The notes below the pieces were generated by a model. The model did no database searches. It saw only the letters and a program-made list of their open reading frames with translations, and was not told the origin of the DNA. A program made the position numbers and the translations under genes. From an uncultured Gammaproteobacteria bacterium (lineage in GTDB: Bacteria > Pseudomonadota > Gammaproteobacteria > Steroidobacterales > Woeseiaceae): a stretch of DNA of 64,000 bases. The DNA is taken from contig CALNXZ010000003.1 in the NCBI GenBank assembly GCA_942490655.1, forward strand, positions 39,441 through 103,440, given 5' to 3'. Below are positions 5,022 to 50,060 of the stretch, one piece after another; positions within the stretch are counted from its first letter, which is position 1, and each line of letters opens with the position of its first letter.

Positions 5022-5030
5022 TGCTACTTC

Positions 5031-5058
5031 TTAGAATCGTTCTAATTGGGAATGATTC
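5031..5058. promoter_or_regulatory. candidate operator: palindrome TTAGAATCGTTCTAA plus GAATGATTC
   Basis: 5031-5045 is a perfect 6-3-6 inverted repeat (TTAGAA-TCG-TTCTAA). Read as 7-1-7 it matches the Fur/PerR-type box TTATAAT-N-ATTATAA at 11 of 14 positions. A second GAAT-G-ATTC palindrome lies at 5050-5058. Both lie just downstream of the -10. Confidence 0.4.
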
Positions 5059-5077
5059 TCACCCGAGAGGACCAAAA

Positions 5078-5497: not shown

Positions 5498-5516
5498 TCA
5501 GCCCAAGTAGCGTTGT

Positions 5517-6854: not shown

Positions 6855-6855
6855 T

Positions 6856-7440
6856 ATGCAGAAACTAGAGCGCAAAGACTTGATGAGCCTGGAGCGATAT
6901 GCGGAGGAGAGGCCTGCTTTCCGCGAGCGAGTCATGGCGCACAAGAAGAACCGTCGCCTCGATCTCGGCACCGATGCTGCGTTGTATTTCGAAGATCGAC
7001 TGACCATTCAATACCAGGTACAGGAAATGCTGCGCATCGAGCGCATTTTCGAGTCCGCAGGAATTAATGAGGAGCTCGACGCTTACAACCCGCTGATTCC
7101 GGATGGCTCAAACTGGAAAGCAACGTTTATGATCGAGTTCCCGGACGTTGACGAGCGTCAGCAGATGCTCGAGCGATTGGTGGGGGTCGAGAACAGGGTG
7201 TATGTCCAGGTCGAGGACTTCGACCGCATATACGCCATATCGGACGAAGATCTGGAGCGTTCCGACGCGCACAAGACATCAGCGGTGCATTTCATGCGTT
7301 TCGAGTTTCCGCCCGAGCAGTCGGCGGCATTAAAGTCGGGCGCGTCACTCATAGCCGGCATCGATCATGATAGCTATACAGTCGAAGTTTGCCCTGTTGC
7401 GGACAACATCCGCAGGTCGCTGATAAACGATCTTAAGTGA
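6856..7440 (+). CDS. DUF3501-like protein of unknown function
   Basis: 194 aa, starting 1 nt after the Fe-S gene. I recognise it as the family that travels with rubrerythrin and the HdrD-like protein. No catalytic motif identified. Confidence 0.6.
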   Translation: MQKLERKDLMSLERYAEERPAFRERVMAHKKNRRLDLGTDAALYFEDRLTIQYQVQEMLRIERIFESAGINEELDAYNPLIPDGSNWKATFMIEFPDVDERQQMLERLVGVENRVYVQVEDFDRIYAISDEDLERSDAHKTSAVHFMRFEFPPEQSAALKSGASLIAGIDHDSYTVEVCPVADNIRRSLINDLK

Positions 7441-23013: not shown

Positions 23014-23090
23014 GCTATAGTCCAGTGGCAGTGAACGGCCCCAGACTGGATGTCGAATACGGGGCTTTTTGGGGTTTGGAGAAATACATT

Positions 23091-32101: not shown

Positions 32102-32125
32102 ACGCTGCTGTTGGGGCGACTCGTT

Positions 32126-35421: not shown

Positions 35422-35498
35422 CGGGGCATGGCGCAGCCTGGTAGCGCATCTGCTTTGGGAGCAGAGGGTCGGGTGTTCGAATCACCCTGCCCCGACCA
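35422..35498 (+). tRNA. tRNA-Pro (anticodon TGG)
   Basis: Cloverleaf folded by eye: CGGGGCA/TGCCCCG acceptor, anticodon loop TTTGGGA, GGTTCGAAT T-arm region, encoded CCA. Confidence 0.9.
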
Positions 35499-35535
35499 TC
35501 CGATTTTCCTGCTTGGCAGAACGGCCGTTTTGACT

Positions 35536-35612
35536 GCGCCCGTAGCTCAATCGGATAGAGCACCGGATTTCTAATCCGGTTGTTGCAGGTTCGAGTCCTG
35601 CCGGGCGCGCCA
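35536..35612 (+). tRNA. tRNA-Arg (anticodon TCT)
   Basis: GCGCCCG/CGGGCGC acceptor, anticodon stem CCGGA/TCCGG with loop TTTCTAA, encoded CCA. It resembles E. coli argU. Confidence 0.9.
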
Positions 35613-35644
35613 TATGGCGTATAGTTGGAAATTGAAAATACAGT

Positions 35645-35721
35645 GGTGGGCGTAGCTCAGTTGGTAGAGCCCCGGCTTGTGATGCCGGTCGTCGTGGGTT
35701 CGAGCCCCATCGTCCACCCCA
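35645..35721 (+). tRNA. tRNA-His (anticodon GTG)
   Basis: Extra 5' G(-1), anticodon loop TTGTGAT, T-loop TTCGAGC, encoded CCA. Confidence 0.9.
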
Positions 35722-35733
35722 TTTTCTTCTAGT

Positions 35734-35809
35734 GGGCCTTTAGCTCAGTTGGTAGAGCAGGAGACTCTTAATCTCTTGGTCCGGGGTTCGAGCCCCCGAG
35801 GGCCCACCA
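35734..35809 (+). tRNA. tRNA-Lys (anticodon CTT)
   Basis: GGGCCTT/AGGGCCC acceptor, anticodon loop CTCTTAA, T-loop TTCGAGC, encoded CCA. Confidence 0.9.
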
Positions 35810-35816
35810 CTTTCCG

Positions 35817-38378
35817 CTACAAACAGCCTGTCAGGCCATTCACCCAGTTCGTCAGCAGGTTCACGCCGTCAGTGTCGACAATGGTCGATCCCAACGGTGG
35901 CATGCCAATACTCATTGTGTCGCGCTGGTTAACCCGTTCGACCAGCACTGAACTTGCCGCAGCGCCGGGTGCGATAATGCGCGCGTTCACGAGGCCAAGA
36001 TCTCCTGCCTGCGGCGCAACATCGCACGCGCTTGTCGCCTGCAAACTCGTCGCATAACGCAGATCGATATCCACCGGCGTTCCACCACCGGGACGATGAC
36101 AGTTGGCACAGTTTGTGTGCAGGTAAGCGCGCGCACGATCGTTGAGGTCAGCGCCCGTGTCCATGGGATCGGCAAGCGCTGGAAGGGTGGCTGGCGTTCC
36201 AGCTAACGGCGCCGAGAACATCATGATGTGATCCAGTGTCGTCAGCTGGTTGTCAGTACGACCGGTACTTGGATACGTGAAATCCCGATTCAACTGTGCC
36301 GTCTCCGGCCCGAGTGCGGCACCCGCAGCGCTGGTATGACACTGCTCGCATTGCGCTTCGCTGGGGAACACCCAATCCTGGCCGGATATACTGACTGTCT
36401 TACCGCCAACCACTCGGGTCGCTTCGGTTTGCGCTGGATTCCATTCGTAGGTGTAACCCGCCCAAACGCCGTCCGGATGACGCATCAGGTGGCGAGTTTC
36501 GACGAGGTTGCCATTCAAGAGGAAGTTTTTGACGATTACGGTGCCCGGCGGCAGCTGCCAGTCGTTTTCGCCATTGATCGACAGGGTCGTGCCATTGGGC
36601 AGTCCGAGGAAACGCGACTTGCTGGCGCCGTCAGACCAGAAACTCGCATTGATGTCGTAAGGAAGCAGGCCTGCGTACGGTTGGGTAACGTCCGCTGGAT
36701 CGACGCAACCGGTATTCGAAAGCAGGTCGGGAATCGTGTTGCCAGCCCCACCGCCGGCGCCGGGTACCAGCTGGTAGATTCGCCCATTGTCTATGTTCGC
36801 GTAGTAGATCTCGCCGTCGGCATCGGCGGCGAAAGCAACCGGACCGCCAGTTTCGTCCGACAACAGTTCGTTGGTATAGCCGCCAGAACCATCGGAGCGC
36901 AGCGCCCAGATACGCCCTGAACCGTAATCCGCGTAGATGTATTCGCCGACGCGACCGCCAATGGCCGAGCCGCGATACACCATGCCACCCGTAACGGAGT
37001 AACCCTCGCTGCGCGGATAGTCGTACACCGGATCGGTGTAAGTTGCGTTGCAGCCGGTGGCGGGGAAGGCAATAAAGCCTTCACGACAACTCCAGCCATA
37101 GTTATTGCCGCGTACGATGATATCGATTTCTTCCCTTGCGCTTTGGCCAACATCACCCGCCCACAGTAGCCCGGTGGCAGAGTCAAATGACCAGCGCCAG
37201 GGGTTGCGTACGCCCCAGGCGAAAATTTCGGGGCAGTTGTTCGGGTTATTGAGTGTCGGGCCGCACTTGGGCTGGCCGGCAAAGGGATTGCCAGTAGCGC
37301 CGCCCGGAATCACATAGGCATTGCCGGGATAGGTAATCGCCGCGTTCGTTGCATCCACGCGCAGGAACGAGCCCAGCAAGTTCGTCGTGTTCTGCCCGGT
37401 CTCTTGCGGATCTCCGCCACCACCACCGTCGCCGAGCCCGATGTACAACAATCCATCTGCGCCGAAAGCAATATCGCCGCCGTTGTGGTTACTGGCGAAC
37501 TGATGGATGGTTATAACTTCGTTCTCAACGGACCCTGCGCTGATGGGGCTGGGTGTCGTGACATTGTTCAATACCACACGAGTAATCACAGATCGCATTG
37601 GCGATGTGTCGCGTGTGTAAGAAAGAAAGATTTCCGGTGTCGCAGGATAGTTCGGATGGAACGCCATGCCGAGCAGTCCACCTTCGCCGGATGCGTTCAC
37701 GACACCTGAAATGTCCAAATAGGTCGTCACGCTGCTGGGCGCATTGTCCGGATCGAAAACGCGGACTTGCCCTGATTTTTGCAATACGAACCAGCGTGGA
37801 TTGGCGACCGGCTCCAGAAGCAGTTTGGTTGGCGAGCTGAACGACAGCCCCGGAAACGCTTCTTGTACGGCAACGCTGGTTGCTGCGCCTGGTCGTGGCG
37901 GTGCCACGCAGGTCTGGTTGTCCGGTCTTGCGTCAAGTCCGTACACGACCGCCGCGTCATCGTTTTGTATCGTGCCAACGGCGCCACCATCAACGACGGT
38001 TGCGCCGTTAGCGCCGCTCAGCGCAACGTTCAGCGTTTCATCGGGTTCTGCGCTGGTGTCGCCGAGGACGGTGATCGAAATCGTGCCGGAGGTATTCGGG
38101 GGAGTAATGGTCAGCGTACCGTTGGCCGCTGTGTAGTCGCTGCCCGCGATCGCGCTTGCGTTGCTCGTCGCCCAGGAAACGCTGACATTTGACGTACTGC
38201 TGCCGGAAAGTGTGACTCGAAAGTCCAGCGAAGTTGTGCCGCTATTGCCTTCAATGACGACGGCATCGGCAATCGATAATGTTGGCACCGGCGGCTGTGT
38301 CGGAGCGGTGTCACTGCCGCCGCTCGTACAGGCCGACGCGGCAGTCGCTACCAGAAGAGTTAGCGTCAGAATTCGCAT
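35817..38378 (-). CDS. lipoprotein fusing Calx-beta, a PQQ-dependent sugar dehydrogenase-like beta-propeller and a diheme c-type cytochrome module
   Basis: Lipobox-like MRILTLTLLVATAASAC. Calx-beta (GSDYTAANGTLTI..EPDETLNVAL). GSDH motifs HNGGDIAFGADGLLYIGLGDGG, WGVRNPWR and GNNYGWS. The C-terminal ~330 aa carry CEQCH and CANCH, which I recognise from memory as SO2930-like. An alternative start lies at 38408. Confidence 0.75.
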   Translation of the reverse strand: MRILTLTLLVATAASACTSGGSDTAPTQPPVPTLSIADAVVIEGNSGTTSLDFRVTLSGSSTSNVSVSWATSNASAIAGSDYTAANGTLTITPPNTSGTISITVLGDTSAEPDETLNVALSGANGATVVDGGAVGTIQNDDAAVVYGLDARPDNQTCVAPPRPGAATSVAVQEAFPGLSFSSPTKLLLEPVANPRWFVLQKSGQVRVFDPDNAPSSVTTYLDISGVVNASGEGGLLGMAFHPNYPATPEIFLSYTRDTSPMRSVITRVVLNNVTTPSPISAGSVENEVITIHQFASNHNGGDIAFGADGLLYIGLGDGGGGGDPQETGQNTTNLLGSFLRVDATNAAITYPGNAYVIPGGATGNPFAGQPKCGPTLNNPNNCPEIFAWGVRNPWRWSFDSATGLLWAGDVGQSAREEIDIIVRGNNYGWSCREGFIAFPATGCNATYTDPVYDYPRSEGYSVTGGMVYRGSAIGGRVGEYIYADYGSGRIWALRSDGSGGYTNELLSDETGGPVAFAADADGEIYYANIDNGRIYQLVPGAGGGAGNTIPDLLSNTGCVDPADVTQPYAGLLPYDINASFWSDGASKSRFLGLPNGTTLSINGENDWQLPPGTVIVKNFLLNGNLVETRHLMRHPDGVWAGYTYEWNPAQTEATRVVGGKTVSISGQDWVFPSEAQCEQCHTSAAGAALGPETAQLNRDFTYPSTGRTDNQLTTLDHIMMFSAPLAGTPATLPALADPMDTGADLNDRARAYLHTNCANCHRPGGGTPVDIDLRYATSLQATSACDVAPQAGDLGLVNARIIAPGAAASSVLVERVNQRDTMSIGMPPLGSTIVDTDGVNLLTNWVNGLTGCL

Positions 38379-38492
38379 GCATGAACTATACGATGAGACC
38401 GTCGGCATTAGGCAATCGACTTCACATTAAGTCCGGGATTGCATCTAAGTACTTGACCGAATACAGAAAAACACCCAGATCGTGGGAGCGAG

Positions 38493-38507
38493 TTCCACAT
38501 TGTGGAA
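38493..38507. promoter_or_regulatory. perfect 7-1-7 palindrome TTCCACA-T-TGTGGAA in the divergent intergenic region
   Basis: Read directly from the sequence. It lies 75 nt upstream of the first MttB gene and ~115 nt upstream of the lipoprotein gene. No T-run follows, so it is not a terminator. Confidence 0.35.
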
Positions 38508-38581
38508 TCGGGGCTGGCTGAGACGGGATGTGATCAAGTAAAATTCCTTTTAATTCAATAGTTAATAACCCCAGAGCCGAT

Positions 38582-40147
38582 ATGCGAAAACGAGCTACTC
38601 GCACACGACGAGGCGGCAGCGCTGCACGCAGGGCCGTCAAAGCGACGTCCTCTGCTGCGAGTGCCGTTCGCCCGGGGCAGAGCGGCGGACAGTATCGCCC
38701 GCTCAGTGACGCCGACATCCAGCGTATCTATGCGACGGCTCTGGATATTCTTGAAAACATCGGCATCGGTGAGCCGATACCCGAGATACTGCACTACGCA
38801 TTGCCGAAAGGCTGCCTGCTCAACGACAAGGGTCGACTGTGTTTTCCGCGTGCGCTGGTCGAAGACCTGATCGCAATTTCTCCTAAAGAATATCCGCTGT
38901 ATGCACCGAACTCTGCCAATGACCTCACCGTCGGCGCCGAGAAGGTCTTGTTCTGCACGTCCGGGGAAGCGGTTACGGTGCTTGATTACGAAACGCAGAA
39001 ATTTCGGCCGACAAAGCTGACCGATCTTTATGATGCGGCGCGGCTCGCCGATCAACTCGAGCACATACACAACTTCGGCCAGCCTTTCATCGCTGCGGAA
39101 TACAGCGGTGATGTGTATGTGCATGACCTCAATATTGCCTATGCCGAACTCGCCGGCACGAACAAGTCTTTCGCACTCGGCATCGCGGTTGTGGACCACA
39201 TCGAACCGATCATCTCGCTGTTCGATATGTACCTCGGCAAAGAAGGCGCGTTTCTTGAGAGACCGTTTTGCACCTTCGGCGGATGTCCTATCGTCTCGCC
39301 GTTGCGATTTGGCGAGGAGAACGCTGAAGTGCTGGTGAAAGTTGCCGAATTGGGCCTTGTCGCCGATATCGCGGTCGCGCCACAGGCGGGAGCCACCTCG
39401 CCGGCGGCGCTGGCCGGAACGCTGGCGCAGTGTTTTGCCGAAACGCTCGCTTGCATGTGCGTCGTCAATCTCGTGCGTCCCGGTACACCGATCAATTTCG
39501 GTATGTGGCCGTTTATTTCCGATCTCCGGACGGGCGCGTTTTCAGGTGGTAGCGGCGAAGAAGCTCTGATAACAGCCGCGACGGCGCAACTCTGCAACCA
39601 CTTCGGTTTCACAACCAGCGTCGGTGCCGGCATGACGGACTCCAAGACCGTCGACGTGCAGGCGGGTTACGAAAAAGGACTCACAATGTTGTCCGCCGCG
39701 CTTTCAGGTGCGAACCTCATTGCGGCCTACCCGGGTATCGTTGGCAGCCTGATCGGTCAGTCATTCGAAGGCATGATCATCGACAATGACATGCTCGGCA
39801 ATGTGCAACGGATACTGCGAGGCATCGAGGTCAACGACGAAACATTGTCTTACGACGTCATCAAGAACACGGTCGAGGGGGCAGGGCATTATCTCGGCAG
39901 CGCGCAGACCCTGGAACTGATGAACACCGAATTCCTGTACCCGGAAGTTGCTGATCGCCTGACGCCGGGCGCCTGGGTGGATGCAGGATGCAAGACCTTG
40001 TATGAGCAGGCGCATGTGCGTGTTCGTGACATGCTCAAAGACTACTATCCAAGTTATATTCATCCTGATGCAGACAAACGCATTCGGGATAACTTCCCCA
40101 TCCGGTTGCGACCGGAGGACATGAAGGCCGGAAACGGCCGTTGGTAA
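38582..40147 (+). CDS. MttB-superfamily (non-pyrrolysine) methyltransferase, paralog 1
   Basis: 521 aa, uninterrupted with no internal TAG. The Arg-rich N-terminus RKRATRTRRGGSAARRA is followed by LSDADIQRIY..ALDILENIGI. The TIM-barrel-length body is homologous to the ORFs at 45569 and 47097. Confidence 0.8.
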   Translation: MRKRATRTRRGGSAARRAVKATSSAASAVRPGQSGGQYRPLSDADIQRIYATALDILENIGIGEPIPEILHYALPKGCLLNDKGRLCFPRALVEDLIAISPKEYPLYAPNSANDLTVGAEKVLFCTSGEAVTVLDYETQKFRPTKLTDLYDAARLADQLEHIHNFGQPFIAAEYSGDVYVHDLNIAYAELAGTNKSFALGIAVVDHIEPIISLFDMYLGKEGAFLERPFCTFGGCPIVSPLRFGEENAEVLVKVAELGLVADIAVAPQAGATSPAALAGTLAQCFAETLACMCVVNLVRPGTPINFGMWPFISDLRTGAFSGGSGEEALITAATAQLCNHFGFTTSVGAGMTDSKTVDVQAGYEKGLTMLSAALSGANLIAAYPGIVGSLIGQSFEGMIIDNDMLGNVQRILRGIEVNDETLSYDVIKNTVEGAGHYLGSAQTLELMNTEFLYPEVADRLTPGAWVDAGCKTLYEQAHVRVRDMLKDYYPSYIHPDADKRIRDNFPIRLRPEDMKAGNGRW

Positions 40148-40171
40148 TCACTAACCCGGTAGCGCAAAACT

Positions 40172-40867
40172 ATGTCGCAAGATAATAACGATGAAATCAT
40201 TCTGTCCGAGCTTTCTGACGAAGAGCTGGTCGAGCAAATGTTTGACGATCTTTACGATGGGTTGGCCGAAGAGATCGCCGAAGGTACACAGATACTTCTC
40301 GATCGCGGCTGGGAAGCCAAGAAAGTGCTGGATGAAGCATTGGTCGCCGGCATGACTATCGTTGGCATCGATTTTCGTGACGGCATACTGTTTGTGCCCG
40401 AGGTCCTGCTGGCTGCCAATTCCATGAAAGCCGGTATGGCGCTATTGAAACCGATACTCACTTCAACGGGTGCCGAGCCGGTTGGCAAACTCGTCATCGG
40501 CACGGTCAAAGGCGACATTCATGATATCGGCAAAAACCTTGTCGGTATGATGATGGAAGGCGCCGGATTCGAAGTCGTTGATCTCGGCATCAATACCGAC
40601 GTTGACACCTACCTCGCAGCGCTCAAAGAGCATCGCCCGAACATACTCGGCATGTCTGCGCTGCTCACGACGACCATGCCGTATATGAAGGTGGTTGTTG
40701 ATGCGCTGATCGAGCAGGGTATTCGCGACGATTACATCGTCATGGTCGGGGGCGCGCCCTTGAATGAAGAGTTTGGCCAGGCTGTAGGTGCGGACGCCTA
40801 TTGCCGGGATGCGGCCACAGCCGTGGAAGTCGCCAAGAAACTCGTACTCAAACAGCGCGCCTCCTGA
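40172..40867 (+). CDS. cobalamin-binding corrinoid protein (MtbC/MtgC-like)
   Basis: 231 aa. Helical cap followed by a Rossmann B12 domain with the DxHxxG motif (GDIHDIGKN), MSALLTTT and GGAP. Confidence 0.85.
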   Translation: MSQDNNDEIILSELSDEELVEQMFDDLYDGLAEEIAEGTQILLDRGWEAKKVLDEALVAGMTIVGIDFRDGILFVPEVLLAANSMKAGMALLKPILTSTGAEPVGKLVIGTVKGDIHDIGKNLVGMMMEGAGFEVVDLGINTDVDTYLAALKEHRPNILGMSALLTTTMPYMKVVVDALIEQGIRDDYIVMVGGAPLNEEFGQAVGADAYCRDAATAVEVAKKLVLKQRAS

Positions 40868-40898
40868 TAGTTGCTGTGGCGCTCACGGCGACAGGTTG

Positions 40899-41501
40899 AT
40901 GCAAGAAAGCGTACTTCTAATCGCCTGCGGCGCGCTCGCCAAAGAGCTGGTCGAAATCAAGCGGCTGAACGCCTGGCAGCACATTCGCATCCAGTGCCTG
41001 CCTGCGGAGCTGCACAATCGACCGGAGAAAATTCCTGCGGCGGTCAGGGACGAAATCAGGAAATACCAGTCCGAGTATGAGGTGATATTTGTGGCGTACG
41101 CCGATTGCGGTACGGGTGGATTGCTGGACAAGACCCTGGCCGAGTTCGGAATTGAGCGTTTGCCGGGCGCACATTGCTATGAATTCTTCAGTGGCACGAA
41201 AACGTTTATGGATCTCGCGGACGAAGAGCCCGGGACCTTTTACCTTACAGACTTTCTGACGCGACATTTCGATCGTCTGGTGAAGGTTGGCCTGGGTCTC
41301 GACAAACATCCGGAATTGATGTCAGCCTATTTTGGTAACTACCGTCGCCTGGTCTATTTGTCGCAATCAGCGTCGCCGGAACTTGCGGCGGCCGCGCAAA
41401 CGCATGCTGAGTTTCTTGGGCTCGAGTATGTTCACAAACACACAGGGCTGGGTCCTGTGACAGGAAAATTGAAGGAGCAGTCTGTGCTATGGCGAAGTTG
41501 A
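40899..41501 (+). CDS. DUF1638-like protein
   Basis: Internal ATG at 40899. LLIACGALAKEL...LPAELHNRPEKIP..VAYADCGTGG resembles DUF1638, a family seen in corrinoid methyltransferase clusters. Function unknown. Confidence 0.6.
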   Translation: MQESVLLIACGALAKELVEIKRLNAWQHIRIQCLPAELHNRPEKIPAAVRDEIRKYQSEYEVIFVAYADCGTGGLLDKTLAEFGIERLPGAHCYEFFSGTKTFMDLADEEPGTFYLTDFLTRHFDRLVKVGLGLDKHPELMSAYFGNYRRLVYLSQSASPELAAAAQTHAEFLGLEYVHKHTGLGPVTGKLKEQSVLWRS

Positions 41502-41827
41502 TCTGTATTTATTGGCGGGACATTCCTGCCCAGGTGCTTGGCCGCGCGGGTCGCACGAACAGTTTCAAGAAAGAATTGGCGCCACGATTTGCCAAGGCGA
41601 TTGATCGCGCGGCGATGCGTGCCGGGCGCGGATCGAGTGACGCCTATCTTGAGGACTGGCGAAGAGTGGCGGAGGAACTCGACGGTGATCTGGAAGCGGC
41701 TGTCATCGCGCGGGTCGCGGATCTGGAAGCGCAGTTTGATGAAGAATTTCTCGAGGCTGTCGTTAAGGCAGGCGGTTTAATCGATGTCGCGAAGCAACGC
41801 GCACAGGAAAAAGGCACCGCAACATGA
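41489..41827 (+). CDS. small conserved protein, PF13769 ('virulence factor' domain)-like
   Basis: 112 aa. YWRDIPAQV...FAKAIDRAAM..G..SSDAYLEDWRR. It overlaps both neighbours. The family assignment is from memory only. Confidence 0.45.
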   Translation: MAKLICIYWRDIPAQVLGRAGRTNSFKKELAPRFAKAIDRAAMRAGRGSSDAYLEDWRRVAEELDGDLEAAVIARVADLEAQFDEEFLEAVVKAGGLIDVAKQRAQEKGTAT

Positions 41828-42726
41828 CCAATACGGTAATCAGTTCTCGGACGAAAGAGGTTGTGATCGGTTTTGAGCAACCGTTCAGAGTCATCGGTGA
41901 GCGCATCAATCCGACCGGCCGCAAATTATTGGCGGAGGAAATGAAAAACGGTGACTACAGCCGCGTCGAGGCCGATGCACTGGCCCAGGTAGCCGCGGGT
42001 GCGCATATCCTTGATGTCAACGCCGGCATTCCGCTGGCTGACGAACCCGCGATACTCGCGAAATCCATCCAGTTGGTGCAGTCCATTACTGATGTGCCGC
42101 TGTGTATCGATTCGTCCATCGTTGCGGCGCTTGAGGCCGGTCTCGCTGTTTACGAAGGCAAGGCACTGCTGAACTCCGTGACCGGCGAGGAAGAGCGCCT
42201 CGAAGCTGTGTTGCCGCTGGTCAAGAAATACGGCTGTGCAGTGATCGCCATATCAAATGATGACAGTGGCATCTCTGAAGACATCAACGTGCGCTTCAAT
42301 GTGGCGAAGAAGATCGTCGAGCGCGCACAGGATTACGGCATACCCGCCAGCGACGTCGTAGTCGATCCGCTGGTCATGCCGATCGGCGCGATCAATACGG
42401 CGGGTCGGCAGGTGATGGCGCTCGTGCAGCGCTTGCGCGACGAGCTAAAGGTCAACACGACCTGCGGCGCGTCAAACCTGAGCTTCGGCCTGCCCAATCG
42501 CAATGGCCTGAACACAGCGTTCATTAGCATGGCCATCTCGAGCGGCATGACTTCGGCGATAACGAACCCACTGCATGCGGAAATCATGCAATCCGTGCGC
42601 GGCGCTGATGTCGTTATGGGTCACGATCCCGAATGTGCAAACTGGATTTCCGTCAACCGCGATCCGAATGCCGAGACCCGTGAGCGACGGGGTCGTCGCG
42701 GTGGTCGCAGTCGTGGCCGCAGCTGA
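41824..42726 (+). CDS. methyltetrahydrofolate:corrinoid methyltransferase (pterin-binding, MtrH/AcsE-like)
   Basis: 300 aa. IGERINPTGRK, LDVNAG, LNSV and SNLSFGLPNR motifs of the pterin-binding barrel. Arg-rich C-tail RERRGRRGGRSRGRS. Confidence 0.8.
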   Translation: MTNTVISSRTKEVVIGFEQPFRVIGERINPTGRKLLAEEMKNGDYSRVEADALAQVAAGAHILDVNAGIPLADEPAILAKSIQLVQSITDVPLCIDSSIVAALEAGLAVYEGKALLNSVTGEEERLEAVLPLVKKYGCAVIAISNDDSGISEDINVRFNVAKKIVERAQDYGIPASDVVVDPLVMPIGAINTAGRQVMALVQRLRDELKVNTTCGASNLSFGLPNRNGLNTAFISMAISSGMTSAITNPLHAEIMQSVRGADVVMGHDPECANWISVNRDPNAETRERRGRRGGRSRGRS

Positions 42727-42734
42727 CACAGTCG

Positions 42735-44711
42735 ATGGGCGATAAAACTCAACAAGATGCATTGGTCGTGTTTATGCCGTCAGGCAAGCGTGGCCGGTTT
42801 CCGTTGTTGACGCCGGTTTTGAGCGCAGCGCGCAGTTTGGGTGTTGATATCGATTCGGTGTGCGGTGGGCGCGCAATTTGTGGACGCTGCCAGATCGAAG
42901 TCGCCGAAGGTGAGTTCTCCAAGCACGGTATTTCCTCGACCGAGGCCAGCGTGACGCCAGCTGCAGAATCGGAGCAGCGCTTCGATACTCGTCGTGGTCT
43001 CGCCAGCGGGCGGCGGTTGAGTTGCCAGGCCTTGTTGCAGAGCGACGTCGTGATTGACGTTCCGGCAAGCTCACAAGTCCATCAGCAGGTTGTACGCAAA
43101 CCGCACGAAGCGCACGACATCACGATTGACCCCGTCGTGCACGCCTACTTTGTTGACGTTGCCGAGCCTGATATGCACGCGGCAATGGGTGATCAGGAAC
43201 GATTGCTGCAAGCACTCGACGAACAATGGCAGATGTCGAATCTGTCCACGGAATTGTGCGCATCGCAGGATTTACAGGCGGCTTTGAAGGCGGGCAAGCG
43301 GCAGGTGACAGTCGCGGTTAGACATGGCGAACGCGTCATCGCCGTCTGGCCGGGGCTTAAGGAAAAATTGCTCGGCATGGCCGTCGATGTGGGCTCGACA
43401 ACCATCGCTGCGCATCTGTGCGACCTGACCAGTGGTGAGGTGTTGGCGAGCGCCGGTGTGATGAATCCGCAAATTCGTTATGGCGAAGATCTCATGAGTC
43501 GAGTCTCATACATCATGATGAACGCGGGCGGCGAGAAAGACCTGATTTCCTCCGTACGCAAAGCGATTAACGAACTGGTGCTCGACGTTGCGGCAGCGGC
43601 AGAAGTCGAAACGACGGATATCGTGGAAATGACAGTGGTTGGCAATCCGATCATGCAACACCTGGTGCTGGGACTAAACCCTGTCGAACTGGGTACAGCA
43701 CCGTTCGCGTTGGTGACCGACAACAGCGTTGACGTTCTGGCATCGATGATCGCCATCAATATTAATCCAGGCGGGCACGTTTACGCGCTGCCGTGTATCG
43801 CGGGCCACGTTGGTGCCGATGCGGCGGGCGTGTTGCTGGCCGAAGCGCCGTTTGAACGCGATGACGTGTCGTTGATCGTCGACGTTGGTACGAATGCCGA
43901 GCTACTGCTCGGTAACAAGAAACGTATGCTGGCCGCATCGAGTCCTACTGGCCCCGCGTTTGAGGGTGCGCAGATCAGTTCGGGCCAGCGTGCAGCCCCC
44001 GGAGCAATCGAACGCGTTCGAATCGACAGGAAGACCCTGGAACCGAGGTTCAAAGTGATCGGCTGTGATTTGTGGTCGGACGATCCGGCGTTCGAAGCAG
44101 CAACGCAAAAAACGGGCGTCACGGGAATTTGTGGCTCCGGCATTATTGAAGTCGTCGCAGAGATGGTACTGGCGGGTGTACTGAGCCACGACGGCAAAAT
44201 ACGAAATCATGAGAGCACCGTATCGTCGCGTGTTGTCCCGGATGGGCGAACCTTTGCTTACGTATTGCATGCAGGTCAGCAGGATATCCGTGTAACCCAA
44301 AACGATGTGCGCGCCATTCAGCTTGCGAAAGCGGCGTTGCATGCCGGTGCCAAGCTGCTGATGGAGCGTTACGGAGTGGAGCGCGTGGATCGAATACGTC
44401 TGGCCGGCGCGTTTGGCGCGCATATTGATGTTAAGTACGCGATGGTGCTGGGACTGATACCGGAGTGCGACCTTTTGCAGGTTTCATCGGCCGGCAATGG
44501 CGCGGGGACCGGCGCGAGAATCGCGTTGCTAGACAGGCAGTCAAGAGCGTTGGTTGAATCTGAGGTGCGTAAGGTCGAGAAGATCGAAACTGCGATCGAA
44601 GCTCGCTTCCAGGAGCACTTCGTTGCGTCGATGGCGATTCCGGGCGGCGCCTCGGAGTCGAGTCCACGCCCGATACGACGCGGTCGACGCGGAGCGCGCA
44701 AAGCGAAATGA
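42735..44711 (+). CDS. corrinoid reductive activase (2Fe-2S ferredoxin domain plus ASKHA ATPase, RACE/DUF4445 type)
   Basis: 658 aa. Plant-type ferredoxin CGGRAICGRCQ..C. Later VDVGSTT and DVGTNAE ASKHA phosphate motifs. Arg-rich C-tail RRGRRGARKAK. Confidence 0.8.
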   Translation: MGDKTQQDALVVFMPSGKRGRFPLLTPVLSAARSLGVDIDSVCGGRAICGRCQIEVAEGEFSKHGISSTEASVTPAAESEQRFDTRRGLASGRRLSCQALLQSDVVIDVPASSQVHQQVVRKPHEAHDITIDPVVHAYFVDVAEPDMHAAMGDQERLLQALDEQWQMSNLSTELCASQDLQAALKAGKRQVTVAVRHGERVIAVWPGLKEKLLGMAVDVGSTTIAAHLCDLTSGEVLASAGVMNPQIRYGEDLMSRVSYIMMNAGGEKDLISSVRKAINELVLDVAAAAEVETTDIVEMTVVGNPIMQHLVLGLNPVELGTAPFALVTDNSVDVLASMIAININPGGHVYALPCIAGHVGADAAGVLLAEAPFERDDVSLIVDVGTNAELLLGNKKRMLAASSPTGPAFEGAQISSGQRAAPGAIERVRIDRKTLEPRFKVIGCDLWSDDPAFEAATQKTGVTGICGSGIIEVVAEMVLAGVLSHDGKIRNHESTVSSRVVPDGRTFAYVLHAGQQDIRVTQNDVRAIQLAKAALHAGAKLLMERYGVERVDRIRLAGAFGAHIDVKYAMVLGLIPECDLLQVSSAGNGAGTGARIALLDRQSRALVESEVRKVEKIETAIEARFQEHFVASMAIPGGASESSPRPIRRGRRGARKAK

Positions 44712-45559
44712 AACTACCGTTGTCCGAAGCGGAACGGCTGGCGCTGGCCAAATCGGTCCACGATGCCTACATGGAAATATTTCCAACCGACACGATTGAA
44801 GAGAAGCTCGATGTGCTTGAGCCGGGTTCTTATGTTGCGGTTACCTGTTCTCCAAGCAAGGGGATCGATGTCACTCTGGACATGTCGCAGCGTATCGCCG
44901 CTCGAGGATTCAGGGTCGTGCCACATATCGCGGCAAAAATGGTCAGAGACGAGGCACACCTGCGCGAAATTCTGGCGCGCCTCAACGACATGCCTATCGT
45001 CAGCCTTTTCGTACCGGGTGGCGATGCGACCAGGCCGGCAGGCAAGTACGGAAAGGCACTCGATCTGTTGCGCGACATAGCCGAGTTCGAGCATCGTTTC
45101 GATGACATTGGCGTGGCCGCACATCCGGAAGGACATCCCGCGGTGAGCAAGGAGTTGTTGCTCGAAGAGCTAGCTGGAAAGCAAGAGTTTTCCAACTACA
45201 TCGTCACACAAATGTGTTTCGATGCCACGATCATTAGTTCCTGGGTTCGTGAGGTACGCGAAGCAGGCATTACCCTCCCGGTCTGGCTGGGTCTGCCGAG
45301 TGTCTCGGACCGGGGTACACTAATGACAACGTCGCTCAGAATCGGAGTGGGTAACTCTCTGCGCTATCTGAAGAACCACGGCAAGATCGCAGCGCGGATG
45401 CTGCGTAACAAAGAGTACAGGCCGGATGACCTGCTGTACGATCTTGCGCCGACTCTCGCCGATGCCAAGCTCAATATTCAGGGCCACCATATCTATTGCT
45501 TCAACCAGGTTGAAAAGGCGGAGCAATGGCGGCGGCAATTTTTGACGGACCTGCAGTGA
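44708..45559 (+). CDS. metF: methylenetetrahydrofolate reductase family protein
   Basis: 283 aa with an ATGA overlap with the upstream gene. The MTHFR-like barrel sequence (EIFP..VTCSP.., VPHIAA.., FVPGGD, AAHPEGHP) was recognised by eye. Confidence 0.65.
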   Translation: MKLPLSEAERLALAKSVHDAYMEIFPTDTIEEKLDVLEPGSYVAVTCSPSKGIDVTLDMSQRIAARGFRVVPHIAAKMVRDEAHLREILARLNDMPIVSLFVPGGDATRPAGKYGKALDLLRDIAEFEHRFDDIGVAAHPEGHPAVSKELLLEELAGKQEFSNYIVTQMCFDATIISSWVREVREAGITLPVWLGLPSVSDRGTLMTTSLRIGVGNSLRYLKNHGKIAARMLRNKEYRPDDLLYDLAPTLADAKLNIQGHHIYCFNQVEKAEQWRRQFLTDLQ

Positions 45560-45568
45560 CGATACGAC

Positions 45569-47083
45569 ATGACGCGACGTAGCCACAGAGAAAAACGAGT
45601 TGCCAATACGATTCAGCAGCTGCCCTGGCGCGAGATCGTCAATCCCTATGGCGCTACCGATGTCATTGCCGACGATCAGGTCGAGCGCATCATAGATAGT
45701 GCTTTTACTGTGCTCGAGAATCAGGGCATGCGATTTCTCGAACCCGGTAGTCGCGAGCAGTTGGTCCGCGGTGGTGCGGATGTCAATGACGACACCATGA
45801 TGGTTCGCTTCGATCGCAACCTGGTTCGGGAGAAGCTGGCATTGGCGCCGTCGGCGTTCGGATTGCAGGCGAGAAACCCGGATCGAAATCTGCATATCGG
45901 TGGCAATAATGTCGTTTTTGTTTCTGTCGGTGGGCCGGCATTTTGCAGCGATCTCGACAAAGGGCGACGGCCCGGTACCTACGCGGAAATGTGCGACTAT
46001 CTCAGATTGATACAGAGCCTGAATATCGTTCACCAGGAAGGCGGCGGAGCCTTCGAGTCCATGGACCTGCCGGCAGAAACACGGCACCTCGATCTGTATC
46101 TTGCGCAACACCGACTGACCGACAAGAATTGCCAGTCCTATGCGCTGGGCAGGCAACGCACGATCGATTCCATCGAGATGGCGTGCATTGCGCTGGCAAC
46201 CACTCGGGCAGAACTGATGCGCAACCCGGCACTGCTCGCCATCATCAATACGAATTCGCCGATGCAGCTCGACATCCCGATGACTGAAGCCGTGCAGGAG
46301 CTCGCGGGAGCGGGCCAAGTGTGTTGTATCACGCCGTTCACACTGGCAGGTTCCATGAGTCCGGCAACGATCGCGGGCACGCTCGTGCAACAGACGGCGG
46401 AGGTGCTGGCCGTCGTCACGTACGCGCAAATGGTGCGACCTGGCGCGCCCGTGATGTACGGATGTTTCGCATCCAACGTTGACATGCGCAGTGGCTCGCC
46501 GGCGCTCGGCACGCCGGAGTACACGAAGGCGGCACAGGCGAGCGGGCAGATTGCGCGGCGCCTCGGTCTGCCGTATCGCTCGAGCAATACCACGGTATCC
46601 AATTGCGTGGATGCGCAATCCGCCTACGAAAGCCAGATGTCTTTGTGGGGAGCGATTATGGGCGGCGCCCATCTCGTCAACCATGCGGCCGGCTGGCTAG
46701 AAGGCGGACTGACAGCGTCGTTCGAGAAACTAATCATCGACGCCGAAATGTTGCAGATGATGGCCGAGTATTTGCGGCCTATTGTTATGAATGATGATGA
46801 GCTTGCGTTGGATGCGATTGCAGAAGTCGGGCCGGGCGGTCATCACTTCGGGACGAGCCACACTCTGGCGCGATACGAATCTGCGTTCTATACACCGATC
46901 GTCTCGAACCGACAGAATTTCGAAGCCTGGCAAGAGGCGGGCAGCATAGACGCCGCCAAACGTGCCAACTTTATATGGAAACAACTCCTAACAGAGTACC
47001 AGCAGCCCGCGCTTGATGCGGCGATTGACGAAGCCCTGGCCGACTACGTAGCAAGGCGAAAACTGGAACTCGGTAACAACTAG
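45569..47083 (+). CDS. MttB-superfamily (non-pyrrolysine) methyltransferase, paralog 2
   Basis: 504 aa, uninterrupted. The basic N-terminus TRRSHREKR is followed by QQLPW. Homologous blocks are shared with the other two paralogs (e.g. [19 protein letters not shown]). Confidence 0.8.
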
Positions 47084-47096
47084 AGCGATAAGAATT

Positions 47097-48620
47097 ATGC
47101 GACCAAAACTCAGTGTTTTATCCGACGAACTCGTGCAGGAAATCCTGACTGAAGCGAAGCGCATCATGTCCGAGACGGGCATGGAAATTCGCGGCGCAGG
47201 CATGCGCGAGCGATTGTTAGCCAGTGGGCTGAAGCTCGATGCCAGCGGCAAGCGTATATTGTTTACGCCCGATGTTGTTGATGCGGCTATTGCCAGCACA
47301 CCGAAGACTTTTACCTTATTCAATCGAGATGGCGACCCGCATGCGGAGATTGGCGGTAACAATGTTCACTACGTGCCAGGTTCAAGTGGACTGAAAATTC
47401 TCGATCACCGCACAGGTGTTACGCGTCTCAGCAACTCAACCGACTTCATCGAGTACGCGCGTCTCTGCGACGGGCTGGAAAACATCGCCTACCTCGCGAC
47501 TGCGTTTTCCACCAACAAGGACATTGAATCGCAGGTTTCAGATGCCTGGCGTTTGTACATGACGCTGACCACATCGAAGAAACCGGTCGTGTCGGGCGCA
47601 TTCAGCGAGCACGGTGTGTCGCGCATGGTTCAGATGATGCAAATGTTTCGCAGTGATCGCGCCGATTTGATCAAGAAACCTATGTCGATTTTTACCATCA
47701 CGGCGACCGGCAATTTTCGCTACGGTGAAGACTCCTGCCAAAACCTGCTCGATTGCGCGGATGCCGGTATCCCTGTCGAAATCGTGCCGGTTACGCTCAT
47801 GGGCCTCATCGCACCGGTCACACTGGTGGGTGCACTCGTGTTTCATTGCGTTGACGTACTGACCGGACTGACGATGGCGCAGATTGCGCGGCCGGGAACA
47901 CCGGTATTGTTTGGGGGTGCGCCAGCGACGTTCCACATGAAGGCGGCAAGTTCACCGATGGCCGCCATTGAAGCGCAGCACCTCAATGTTGCCTATGTGC
48001 AGATCGCGAAGTCTTTGAATCTGCCGACGCAAGCCTATATGGCACTGAGCGACGGCAAATTGCTCGATGCACAGGCGGGCGGCGAAACGTTCAGCAGTGC
48101 GCTACTCGCAGCGATCGCAGGTGTGAATTCGGTTTCCGGGCCGGGCATGCTCGATTTTGTATTGACCTTCAGCTTGCCGAAACTCGTATTTGACAACGAG
48201 GTTTGCGGCCAGGCTTTGCATTTCGTGAAAGAGATCAAGCCGCTCGATGATTTGCCCACACAGGATCTCGTCGACCAGCTGATGCGCGAAGACCATCTCA
48301 TTACTTCGCCGCATACGCTTAAGCATTGGCCCAATGAGCTGTATCTCACGCAGCCGGTAATTGACCGATTAAATCGCGAGACCTGGCAGGAGGGCGGTTC
48401 GATGGAGCTCCACGAACGCGCTTGTGCCGAAGTCGAAACCCGCCTTGCGAAATACGAGCCTATTGAAACCGATCCGGCGATCGACGCGGCGATGCGTGAT
48501 TTGGTGAAAGCCGGATTCGTCGAACAGGCGGAGCTACCCGAACTGCCGCCTGTGCCGGATAAGCCGGCGCCGGTAGTTATTGCGGGTCGTCGGGGTCGGG
48601 CTGGCAGGCGTCGGCGTTAA
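47097..48620 (+). CDS. MttB-superfamily (non-pyrrolysine) methyltransferase, paralog 3
   Basis: 507 aa, uninterrupted. There is no N-terminal basic extension; instead a Pro-rich linker and the C-tail [11 protein letters not shown]. Confidence 0.8.
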
Positions 48621-48634
48621 TGAAACCCTGCTAA

Positions 48635-49312
48635 CTATGGCGCCAGTCTGGCTATCGCCCAGCTGCCGTCGTCCTGCTTCGTGTATTGAAAGCGGTCGTG
48701 CAGTCGGTTGCGACGGCCTTGCCAGAATTCAACTTCTTCAGGCACGACACGATAGCCGCCCCAGAATGACGGCAGTGGTATTTCTTTGTTACTGAACTTG
48801 TCTTTCATTTCCTGAAACTTGCTTTCAAGCAATGAACGAGACGAGATCACACTGCTTTGCGCCGACACCCAGGCGCCGATCTGGCTGCCTCGAGGCCGTG
48901 AAACAAAATACTTGAGTGTTTCGCTGCCCGGGATTCGTACCGCCTGGCCACGGATCCTTACCTGCCGTGCGGCGTCCGACCAGAAAAACAGCAGCGCAAC
49001 GTTGGGATTGGCCTCAATATGTACGGCCTTCTTGCTGTCGTAGTTGGTAAAGAAGACAAAACCCTTTTCGTCGAAGTACTTCAATAACACGGTGCGGCTC
49101 GTTGGCCGATTCCGGCTATCTATGGTCGACAGGGACACCGCGTTCGGGTCCATCGGGACAGTGTCGCAGGCATGACGAAACCAGCCTTCAAATTGAACAA
49201 TCGGATCATCGGCCAAATCCTCCCGATCCAGCACAAAGCCTGTCGCAGAACGGCGCAGGCTCGATACGTTCATGCCGTGGTGCTCGGGGAGATCTTTCGT
49301 ATCATCGGTCAT
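48635..49312 (-). CDS. pdxH: pyridoxamine 5'-phosphate oxidase
   Basis: 225 aa. RTVLLK..D..GFVFFTNY.S.K and WGGYRV.PE.VEFWQGR.NRLHDR motifs. Confidence 0.9.
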   Translation of the reverse strand: MTDDTKDLPEHHGMNVSSLRRSATGFVLDREDLADDPIVQFEGWFRHACDTVPMDPNAVSLSTIDSRNRPTSRTVLLKYFDEKGFVFFTNYDSKKAVHIEANPNVALLFFWSDAARQVRIRGQAVRIPGSETLKYFVSRPRGSQIGAWVSAQSSVISSRSLLESKFQEMKDKFSNKEIPLPSFWGGYRVVPEEVEFWQGRRNRLHDRFQYTKQDDGSWAIARLAP

Positions 49313-49408
49313 GGCCCCATAGTAAGCATCGACGGCTGATTAGCCAATGGGGAAATTGCAGCAACCACTGTATGATTCCAGTATTGAGCAGCCAACGGGA
49401 GGACGTTG

Positions 49409-49888
49409 ATGTCCAGCCTTAACGAATTCACTACCAAGAAAGTCGTGCATCATTGGCCGATAACCTTGCTGCGTGTTTACACAGGCGTGTTCTTTGTCCA
49501 ATACGGCTATGGCAAGGTCACCAACCCGAATTTTGCCCAGGGATTGACCGGATTCGTCACCGGTAATCTCGAAAAGTGTTATGGCTTCATGCGGCCGTTC
49601 CTCGAGTCGGTGGTGCTGCCGAATACGGGTATTTTCGCGTTTCTGGTTTCCTGGGGGGAATTCCTGATCGGGGCAGCGCTGATCGTCGGTCTGGCGACCC
49701 GCTATGCGGCGGCGGCCGGAGCCCTGATGGTTGCTGCGTTCTGGTTCACGAAGGGGCAGGGCTTTTTCGACGCACAGAATCACGATTCGATCTGGTTCAT
49801 GATTTTCATCGTATTGGCGGCCGTTCACGCAGGGCGCAAACATAGCCTGGACGCCAAACTGGCCGATCGCTTCCGCTTTTTGGCCTGA
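49409..49888 (+). CDS. DoxX family membrane protein
   Basis: The ATG at 49409 lies 6 nt after GGAGGA. Four hydrophobic helices, LLRVYTGVFF..G..K and GEFLIGAALIVGL resemble DoxX. Confidence 0.6.
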   Translation: MSSLNEFTTKKVVHHWPITLLRVYTGVFFVQYGYGKVTNPNFAQGLTGFVTGNLEKCYGFMRPFLESVVLPNTGIFAFLVSWGEFLIGAALIVGLATRYAAAAGALMVAAFWFTKGQGFFDAQNHDSIWFMIFIVLAAVHAGRKHSLDAKLADRFRFLA

Positions 49889-49900
49889 TATCGGCGCGGC

Positions 49901-49930
49901 TTCCAATCGCGAACTTTGTCCCTGTATAAT
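49901..49930 (+). promoter_or_regulatory. possible promoter for tRNA-Leu (TTCCAA-18 nt-TATAAT, GC-rich discriminator)
   Basis: Perfect TATAAT at 49925-49930 followed by GCCCGGC. The -35 element is weak. Confidence 0.35.
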
Positions 49931-49974
49931 GCCCGGCTGGGCAGGTTGTGCGGGTGTTATGAGTCGCACGTTCG

Positions 49975-50060
49975 TGCGAATGTGGCGGAATTGGTAGACG
50001 CGCTGGTTTTAGGTACCAGTGGGGTAACCCGTGAGAGTTCGAGTCTCTCCTTTCGCACCA
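49975..50060 (+). tRNA. tRNA-Leu (anticodon TAG)
   Basis: Type II tRNA with a long variable arm, anticodon loop TTTAGGT, T-loop TTCGAGT, encoded CCA. One acceptor-stem mismatch. Confidence 0.85.

Follow-up and report, generated by a model that had tools for sequence, protein, structure and literature searches.

A putative MtgBCD-type cobalamin-dependent demethylation operon with three MttB paralogs in a Woeseiaceae-like chromosome

The operon and its described counterparts

In aerobic Ruegeria pomeroyi, a role for the methyl-transfer system MtgBCD together with RamA, DUF1638 and MetF2 has been shown genetically (Mausz et al., PNAS 2025; PMC12478193). Two pfam06253 proteins and the RamA-like, DUF1638 and MetF2 proteins of this organism are induced on glycine betaine (GB), choline and carnitine (PMC12478193), and the component set is required for, or induced on, GB in both R. 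pomeroyi and Phaeobacter inhibens, which is likewise aerobic (PMC12478193, PMC5764234, bioRxiv 10.64898/2025.12.19.695462). Homologs of mtgC are found in Alpha-, Delta- and Gammaproteobacteria and frequently lie in operons, and the presence of up to seven pfam06253 paralogs per genome suggests further substrates (PMC12478193). In P. inhibens mtgB1 has been deleted, and mtgB2-4 are termed 'related uncharacterized methyltransferases' (bioRxiv 10.64898/2025.12.19.695462). Here we describe a nine-gene locus at positions 38582-48620 (plus strand) of a 64,000-nucleotide stretch of contig CALNXZ010000003.1 (assembly GCA_942490655.1; hereafter, the window), from an uncultured gammaproteobacterium of the family Woeseiaceae. 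All six component types of the aerobic MtgBCD systems, namely methyltransferase 1 (MT1), the corrinoid protein MtgC, methyltransferase 2 (MT2; MtgD), a RamA-like activase, DUF1638 and MetF2, occur together in this one operon, which has three MttB-type MT1 genes (B1, B2 and B3).

MetH and CmuAB are precedents for cob(I)alamin chemistry in aerobic organisms. The first-pass annotation of the window had held that non-pyrrolysine (non-Pyl) MttB systems are known solely from strict anaerobes, a view outdated by the aerobic version published in 2025; its surprise at an O2-sensitive cob(I)alamin pathway in an aerobe had likewise been anticipated in print, Gammaproteobacteria included (PMC12478193). 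The concept of cobalamin-dependent betaine demethylation in aerobes is not new. The aerobic MtgBCD(E) systems of R. pomeroyi DSS-3 and of P. inhibens have the same components as the locus described here, stand in O2-respiring Proteobacteria and include multiple MttB paralogs. However, the mtg genes of R. pomeroyi are scattered, whereas the nine-gene operon here brings all parts together, among them the activase and three MT1 genes. No mtgE is linked to it, its benthic host family is not named in PMC12478193, and its PF13769 gene is not discussed in the R. pomeroyi and P. inhibens papers (PMC12478193, PMC5764234).

The remaining counterparts share parts of this arrangement. The MtgB/MtgC/MtgA system of Desulfitobacterium hafniense (2QNE, 9YCE; PMC13080624) has the TIM-barrel MttB fold, a corrinoid partner and a folate MT2, but its host is an anaerobe that does not use a MetF of the S6MTHFR type. 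Its MtgB (DhMtgB) uses an aromatic pair, Y97/F356, that is missing in B1, B2 and B3; the proteobacterial type has instead an HAAGWLEGG motif with a Trp. In Eubacterium limosum, several MT1s (MtpB, MtcB, MtyB and MthB) likewise go with one corrinoid protein and MT2, but this organism is a strict anaerobe that feeds the Wood-Ljungdahl pathway, and its MttB paralogs keep the equivalent of R312 (PMC13080624), which B1 and B3 do not. CmuAB/MetF2 of Methylorubrum extorquens CM4 and LigM/S6MTHFR of Sphingobium lignivorans SYK-6 combine, in aerobes, a demethylase that makes methyltetrahydrofolate (CH3-THF) with an oxidative methylenetetrahydrofolate reductase (MTHFR) that makes no use of NADH; the MT1 families of CmuA and LigM differ from MttB, and LigM is B12-independent (PMC11868366). 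The pyrrolysine-containing Pyl-MttB (7XCL; TIGR02369) belongs to the same superfamily as the MttBs of the window and is 24-30% identical to them, but they have no in-frame UAG.

The nine same-strand open reading frames (ORFs) that the first-pass annotation had placed across 38582-48620 were all confirmed at their coordinates. With the DUF1638 start taken as ATG 40899, the intergenic gaps are 24, 31, -13, -4, 8, -4, 9 and 13 nt, so that the range of -13 to +31 nt and the three overlaps among eight gene junctions were reproduced. The longest DUF1638 ORF begins at GTG 40788; ATG 40899 is the start in the gene call on an identical Logan contig (locus L001).

Conservation was assessed by tblastn of nine window proteins against 80 loci fetched with B2. 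This survey of the exact gene order, which the first-pass annotation had proposed, found the order C-DUF1638-PF13769-D-RACo-MetF2-B2-B3 intact in 21 loci, and near-intact variants add several more; the order recurs in at least 24 of the 80 loci. Those that carry it belong to Woeseiaceae, Steroidobacteraceae and further Gammaproteobacteria, and the genomes that match best are those of Woeseiaceae and Steroidobacteraceae and unclassified gammaproteobacterial metagenome-assembled genomes. About 18 loci hold MetF2-B2-B3 or B2-B3 alone. The presence of B1 upstream varies between related loci, whereas B3, where carried, always lies immediately 3' of B2. Identity among relatives is 74-94% for B3, which matches or exceeds that of every other operon gene, and 77-97% for MtgC. 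The recurrence of this gene order in dozens of independent genomes places the operon far beyond chance, and the nine genes probably form one transcript. Counts of internal promoters and terminators that could split the operon were no higher than the shuffled expectation and are uninformative either way.

A syntenic 3.49 Mb contig (L082) has the same flanks and carries the operon at the same chromosomal position without the activase, the gene for which is located elsewhere in some relatives, this one among them. We considered a recent horizontal island and rejected it: the GC content of the operon is uniform with that of its surroundings, and the insertion site is shared with this distinct 3.49 Mb genome. 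Together, these two observations point to vertical inheritance within the family.

Taken together, we read the locus as a complete MtgBCD-type cobalamin-dependent demethylation system in a Woeseiaceae-like chromosome, with a probability of about 0.8. This reading is based on the domain assignments of the nine ORFs, on their B12-binding and Fe-S motifs, on the tight spacing and on the recurrent gene order, and further on the precedent of R. pomeroyi and P. inhibens, on an equivalent module in Azoarcus, on the residues and gene neighbours of B2 and on the affinity of MetF2 to S6MTHFR. Gene content, order, conservation and homology are observed, and the direction of flux, the sharing of MtgC by three MT1s and all substrate assignments are inferred. 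B1, B2 and B3 would each take a methyl group from a different methylated onium or amine compound and pass it to Co(I)-MtgC, giving CH3-Co(III)-MtgC. MtgD would move the methyl group to tetrahydrofolate, and MetF2 would oxidise the resulting 5-methyl-THF to 5,10-methylene-THF, feeding C1 oxidation and assimilation. MtgC adventitiously oxidised to Co(II) would be returned to Co(I) by the RACo activase with the help of DUF1638, using ATP and a low-potential electron, and the PF13769 protein may be a conserved folate-side accessory. The first-pass annotation had proposed this same funnel of several MT1s through one corrinoid protein, one MT2, an activase and an oxidative MetF, and the proposal is supported in that the domains match the validated system and MetF2 is nearest to S6MTHFR.

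Methyl carrier, reactivation and folate-side proteins

Domain identities were taken from Pfam and NCBIfam profile searches. The MtgC-type corrinoid protein (40172-40867, +) combines a B12 cap (PF02607) with a Rossmann domain (PF02310) and contains D115-I-H-D-I-G120 (DIHDIG) and the SxL...GG motif. Its best NCBIfam match is MtgC_2 (204 bits, under the cutoff of 370), and it shares 73-74% identity with the corrinoid proteins encoded in the Azoarcus and Sinorhizobium meliloti modules described below. MtgC may be the methyl carrier common to the three MT1s. The reductive activase (42735-44711, +) has the RACo/RamA architecture of a 2Fe-2S ferredoxin domain at the N-terminus, a linker, a middle domain and a C-terminal ASKHA ATPase (Fer2 26, RACo_linker 82, Raco_middle 160 and RACo_C_ter 284 bits), with Cys43, Cys49, Cys52 and Cys97 present. 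It scores 360 bits against AcsV, under the cutoff of 800, and is thus no AcsV equivalog.

The DUF1638 protein (40899-41501, +; PF07796, 101 bits) is predicted to be an accessory factor in B12 reactivation. DUF1638 mutants of P. inhibens are methionine auxotrophs, and the DUF1638 gene co-occurs with a RamA-like gene (PMC5764234); in R. pomeroyi, the DUF1638 protein is induced on N-osmolytes (PMC12478193).

The small protein encoded next (41489-41827, +) matches PF13769, a family named 'virulence factor', with 62 bits. Its homologs are stand-alone proteins, 74-88% identical for the best among the matches listed. An AlphaFold2 model from a 26-sequence alignment was poor (predicted local distance difference test score 57, predicted template modelling score 0.42). 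Genes of this family also lie in other B12 modules, at 9001-9336 in L086 and at 9001-9303 in L087. On the pAZKH replicon of Azoarcus sp. KH32C the gene order is corrinoid - DUF1638 - PF13769 - MetV-like - MetF - pterin methyltransferase - ASKHA, surrounded by proVWX, a GlxA/GbdR-like regulator, purU, electron-transfer-flavoprotein genes and an FAD oxidoreductase. In S. meliloti the order is PF13769 - MetV-like - MetF - MT2 - hypothetical - ASKHA, near mtgC, DUF1638 and the MttB of structure 4YYC; DUF1638 lies ~2.3 kb upstream of PF13769, with other genes between. In modules from Alpha- to Gammaproteobacteria, PF13769 always adjoins MetV/MetF or MtgD, which are folate-side genes. 'Virulence factor' is probably a misnomer for what is rather an accessory of C1/B12 metabolism.

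On the folate side, MtgD (41824-42726, +) matches PF00809 with 101 bits, as well as the pterin module of MetH, and NF005719 (methyl-THF:corrinoid methyltransferase) with 370 bits, above the cutoff of 259. The gene identities named in the first-pass annotation were borne out by the profile searches, save that it had called this protein 'MtrH-like': the MtrH score is 19 bits, below the gathering score of 22.8. MtgD is instead predicted to be an enzyme of the MeTr/AcsE/MtgD type, a methylcobalamin:tetrahydrofolate methyltransferase.

MetF2 (44708-45559, +) is a weak match to the MTHFR family (PF02219, 45 bits). Its nearest solved structure is that of S6MTHFR (7XG9; 119 bits, E 2e-33, full length), whereas canonical MTHFRs score at most 39 bits; no significant similarity was found between MetF2 and the MetF of Azoarcus. 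In place of MetF2, the alpha- and betaproteobacterial modules carry a MetV/MetF-type reductase. S6MTHFR oxidises CH3-THF and neither binds nor uses NADH; it is the defining member of a 'type 4' family that is coupled to THF-dependent demethylases, CmuAB among them, and has the signature Leu48-Pro49, Arg78, Cys219 and Pro268-Phe269 (PMC11868366). At these positions MetF2 has S/P, M, I and C/F, so that two of six residues (P49 and F269) are kept in a hand mapping from the printed alignment. Oxidation of 5-methyl-THF to 5,10-methylene-THF is the best-supported reading of MetF2, as predicted from its sequence.

The three MttB paralogs and competing readings

B1 (38582-40147, +; 521 aa), B2 (45569-47083, +; 504 aa) and B3 (47097-48620, +; 507 aa) belong to the MttB superfamily, as the first-pass annotation had claimed. 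They match PF06253 with 328, 623 and 256 bits, respectively (gathering score 25), over essentially the full profile of 500 positions (1-490, 4-500 and 29-493). Pairwise they share 24-27% identity (27% for B2 and B3) and are as distant from one another as from Pyl-MttB; B1 is 24-30% identical to B2, B3, DhMtgB and Pyl-MttB. B2 shares 37% identity with DhMtgB and 40% with 4YYC, the MttB encoded beside mtgC in S. meliloti. Arg-rich N-terminal extensions of ~30-35 residues with no hydrophobic segment occur in B1 (38582-38690), B2 (45569-45660) and 4YYC, and B3 lacks one.

None of the three has an in-frame UAG, in agreement with the first-pass annotation. The codon at the pyrrolysine position is ATG (Met) in B1, a Thr codon in B2 and CTG (Leu) in B3, and the scores against the Pyl-MttB equivalog TIGR02369 (335, 285 and 293 bits) lie well under the cutoff of 525. 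The Rfam model PYLIS_3 matches inside B1 (39632-39734, 44.2 bits) and B3 (48045-48144, 40.6 bits), above its gathering threshold of 38. We rejected these matches as regulatory RNA or as a sign of pyrrolysine read-through. Their first codon is the one homologous to UAG, here the sense codon ATG or CTG, and the model thus detects conserved coding sequence. In this way, false PYLIS calls may arise in annotation pipelines for non-Pyl MttB genes. Matches to WD40 at B3 residues ~49-87 included no single stretch over threshold and were discarded as compositional noise.

The GB ligands of D. hafniense MtgB are Y97, R312, H348 and F356 (PMC13080624). We mapped them through alignments with DhMtgB (2QNE/9YCE), S. 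meliloti 4YYC and MttB 7XCL. At these positions B2 has G/R/H/G; it retains the two carboxylate ligands and neither of the other two. B1 (G/S/A/L) and B3 (S/Q/S, or a gap at the third, /V) keep none, and the complete D. hafniense-type motif is found in none of the three. The mapped residues are invariant inside each orthogroup (72 B2, 46 B3 and 6 B1 sequences). B2 also has a Trp at the position of I352, within the HAAGWLEGG motif that it has in common with 4YYC. R312 is reported to be conserved in all characterised non-Pyl MttB members, all of which act on acidic quaternary amines (PMC13080624); on our alignments, B1 and B3 break this rule.

On a Parasedimentitalea plasmid, a B2 homolog adjoins soxBDAG, a gene similar to dimethylglycine dehydrogenase (DMGDH) and a LysR gene. 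In the Woeseiaceae loci L010, L012 and L021, B2-B3 adjoins a GbdR-like AraC/DJ-1 regulator and soxGADB; in L010 (13208-20567) metF2 lies upstream of B2-B3, and in L010 and L012 a major facilitator superfamily (MFS) transporter gene lies between B2-B3 and the regulator. A fourth Woeseiaceae locus, L015, has the same neighbourhood of B2-B3, MFS, GbdR-like and sox genes. In five Pseudomonadales loci without B3, a DgcA-like flavoprotein gene lies directly upstream of B2. Because R312 and H348 are kept and because orthologs have these sox, DMGDH-like, DgcA-like and GbdR-like neighbours, B2 is probably a GB:corrinoid methyltransferase, a functional MtgB that converts GB to dimethylglycine (DMG). The first-pass annotation had left the substrates of all three paralogs unassigned. 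This still holds for B1 and B3, whereas for B2 residues and context point to GB.

For B1 and B3 we propose substrates other than GB. Both are candidates for new MT1 specificities, in subfamilies without a characterised member. Homologs 49-50% identical to B1 are encoded on Leisingera plasmids, with neighbouring genes for a Rieske oxygenase, a DgcA-like flavoprotein, an enzyme of the mandelate-racemase family and an ATP-binding cassette (ABC) transporter. No plasmid homolog of B3 exceeds 28.5% identity. B3 forms a single full-length 50%-identity cluster in a library of 1.84 billion proteins; the next full-length relatives are at most 40% identical and have the motif 'LPTQ/HAY..SD.K' in common with B3. 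One of them, P0365 (40% identical), has the PTQAY motif too and belongs to a three-gene unit of corrinoid protein, homocysteine-type S-methyltransferase (PF02574) and MttB (L088, 6279-9467; L089, 4672-7860), and this triad suggests a direct route from substrate through the corrinoid protein to a thiol or methionine in an unrelated lineage. The contigs of two other distant relatives, P0367 and P0372, are too short to show gene context.

Several points weigh against reading the locus as a complete MtgBCD-type demethylation system. The locus is known here from its genes alone, and no transporter, DMG-catabolic or sarcosine-catabolic gene was found in the 64-kb window. MetF2 keeps few of the S6MTHFR signature residues, as set out above. 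B2 lacks both aromatic cage residues, Y97 and F356 each being Gly, so that the case for GB consists of two of four ligands and of gene context; the comparison of B2 with reference MttBs covered DhMtgB, 4YYC and 7XCL. B1 and B3 have none of the known GB ligands, and 'quaternary amine' is a default guess for both.

One alternative concerns the direction of methyl flow. MtgC, MtgD, the RACo activase and DUF1638 could mainly or additionally form a split cobalamin-dependent methionine synthase, with MtgD reversed (CH3-THF to Co) and a homocysteine methyltransferase, MtgE (PF02574), encoded elsewhere to complete the pathway; the MttBs would then feed methionine synthesis directly and not catabolism. 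Mutants in mtgC and mtgD are methionine auxotrophs in R. pomeroyi and P. inhibens, and metH is missing from about 70% of the marine genomes that have mtgBCD (PMC12478193, PMC5764234, bioRxiv 10.64898/2025.12.19.695462); the distant B3 relative P0365 stands in the triad with PF02574 just described. However, the 64-kb window has no PF02574 or MetH gene, and an oxidative-type MetF2 together with three MT1 genes is a catabolic signature. Also counted against this alternative is that mtgE usually does not lie near mtgBCD in marine Alpha-, Gamma- and Deltaproteobacteria (PMC12478193). We consider a split synthase rather unlikely.

The other alternatives leave the demethylation system in place and concern the work of its MT1s. 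The most probable of them, at somewhat less than even odds, is that B1 and B3 act on other quaternary amines, such as proline betaine or hydroxyproline betaine, carnitine, gamma-butyrobetaine or choline derivatives, the kind of substrate that the first-pass annotation had in view. E. limosum, with several MttB paralogs on one corrinoid protein, sets the precedent, and the Leisingera homolog of B1 lies with the Rieske oxygenase, the mandelate-racemase-family enzyme and the ABC transporter, a gene set that we take to resemble hydroxyproline-betaine/proline-betaine catabolic loci. This view conflicts with the retention of R312 by characterised members for acidic quaternary amines (PMC13080624), the residue being invariantly Ser in B1 and Gln in B3, and no substrate-specific transporter is linked to B1 or B3 here. 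That B3 performs a second demethylation, from DMG to sarcosine, on MtgC is a less probable proposal, and on balance we doubt it. B2 and B3 would then replace DMGDH/DgcAB and pass sarcosine to SoxBDAG. Such a role would fit the fixed position of B3 immediately after B2 and the coupling of B2-B3 with a GbdR-like regulator and soxGADB in L010, L012, L021 and L015. Three of these four loci have no DMGDH/DgcA within 10 kb, L021 having a weak 35% DMGDH-like match, and the five Pseudomonadales loci with B2 and without B3 have the DgcA-like gene directly upstream. Corrinoid-dependent demethylation of DMG occurs in anaerobes, with no enzyme assigned to it (PMC9768040). On the other side, B3 lacks the carboxylate-binding Arg and His expected for DMG; it occurs together with a DgcA-like gene in L076 and with the 35% match in L021; and 18 loci have B2 alone with no DMG enzyme in view in flanks of ~10 kb. 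A tertiary amine may also need activation chemistry such as that provided by pyrrolysine, and no such feature is evident. If B3 did act on DMG, GB would be converted to sarcosine in two steps that both depend on cobalamin, upstream of SoxBDAG.

A heteromeric MT1 of B2 and B3, in which B3 is a non-catalytic or specificity-modifying partner, appears very improbable. The strict B2-B3 adjacency and the very strong conservation of B3 speak for it, as does the C-terminal extension by which one MtgB/MttB monomer contributes to the active-site rim of its neighbour (PMC13080624). However, B2 occurs without B3 in 23 of the 73 loci with enough sequence downstream of B2, and B2 and B3 are just 27% identical. 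We know of no heteromeric MttB. A broader proposal is that B3, and possibly B1, founds an MttB subfamily for a substrate class new to non-Pyl MttBs, either DMG or a non-carboxylate methylated amine. It is a speculative suggestion that we regard as improbable, and it is an argument of guilt by association. An MT1 specific for DMG or for non-carboxylate substrates would be new.

Upstream region, chromosomal surroundings and ecological setting

The operon encodes neither a regulator nor a transporter among its nine ORFs. This statement of the first-pass annotation stands for the coding content and is to be qualified by a conserved operator-like palindrome and a -10 box upstream. The perfect 15-bp palindrome TTCCACATTGTGGAA (38493-38507), with an inner T-N11-A, is situated 75 nt upstream of the start codon of B1. 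The window has a single copy; with up to one mismatch allowed, one match or more turned up in 13 of 100 shuffles, so that the count itself is not significant. In a pattern search, eight related loci had the same or a near-identical box 80-160 nt before B1 or mtgC, whichever came first in the operon, and it is visible by eye in ~17 of 26 aligned upstream regions. A -10-like hexamer, TAAAAT (38539-38544, +), follows ~30 nt past the palindrome, inside a conserved GATC..GTAAAATT block; a generic sigma-70 scan did not call this hexamer. Most related loci have the conserved block 'GATCCGsTAgAATT' in alignment upstream of the operon, and loci with the palindrome and a TAAAAT/TAGAAT block before mtgC or B1 include L005, L006, L008, L023, L024, L031 and L066. 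The palindrome is thus a candidate operator and the TAAAAT block a candidate promoter, and the regulator would be encoded elsewhere. No cobalamin or other riboswitch was found upstream: apart from PYLIS_3, positions 38500-48700 gave no Rfam match at the gathering score or at E<=1.

The operon is embedded in core gammaproteobacterial synteny. On the 5' side the order is accD-folC-dedD-cvpA-purF, a Ser/Thr kinase gene, miaE, metallophosphatase and peptidyl-prolyl isomerase genes, four tRNA genes and a divergent glucose/sorbosone dehydrogenase (GSDH)/Calx-beta gene; on the 3' side, a convergent pdxH and a tRNA-Leu gene precede tig-clpP-clpX-lon-hupB-ppiD. The four tRNA genes (Pro-TGG, Arg-TCT, His-GTG and Lys-CTT) lie at 35422-35809 and tRNA-Leu(TAG) at 49976-50060. 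The segment that they bracket contains the operon, the GSDH/Calx-beta gene, pdxH and a 209-aa ORF (49340-49969, -) that has no Pfam match. The GSDH/Calx-beta gene (35817-38408, -), divergent from the operon, encodes a secreted 863-aa protein with Calx-beta and a GSDH beta-propeller, and is missing from this position in the syntenic 3.49 Mb relative. Further genes of the window encode two eukaryotic-type Ser/Thr protein kinases (1975-3279 and 32111-33334, +), one of them fused to a cyclic-nucleotide-binding domain, and FimV-N-domain proteins of 643 aa (11646-13577, -) and 1127 aa (23025-26408, +).

Sco1, PCuAC, PdxH and MiaE are all encoded in the window, as the first-pass annotation had listed. 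This content supports the use of O2; strict aerobiosis is not demonstrable from the window. A three-gene set for rubrerythrin, a CCG-domain (heterodisulfide-reductase-like) protein and DUF3501 (5021-7440, +) hints at a microaerobic or oxidative-stress physiology beside the O2-dependent enzymes.

GB and related methylated amines are major osmolytes, and methylated amines in sediments are the main 'non-competitive' substrates of methylotrophic methanogens. Lineages of the Woeseiaceae/Steroidobacteraceae make up 1-22% of marine-sediment 16S rRNA gene sequences (PMC7082342). Two dedicated surveys of Woeseiales/Woeseiaceae metabolism do not mention betaine, cobalamin or methyltransferases. What is modestly new here is the presence of an MtgBCD system in Woeseiaceae, in an unusually complete operon, and the ecological extension that follows from it. 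Across Woeseiaceae and Steroidobacteraceae the conserved operon keeps to one chromosomal site. With it, the aerobic MtgBCD pathway reaches beyond pelagic Alphaproteobacteria into the benthos, which implies a demand for cobalamin and a sink for methyl groups that would compete with methanogenesis. If B3 or B1 did found a new subfamily, the Woeseiaceae, among the most abundant families of marine sediments, would constitute a large non-methanogenic, B12-dependent sink for methylated amines.

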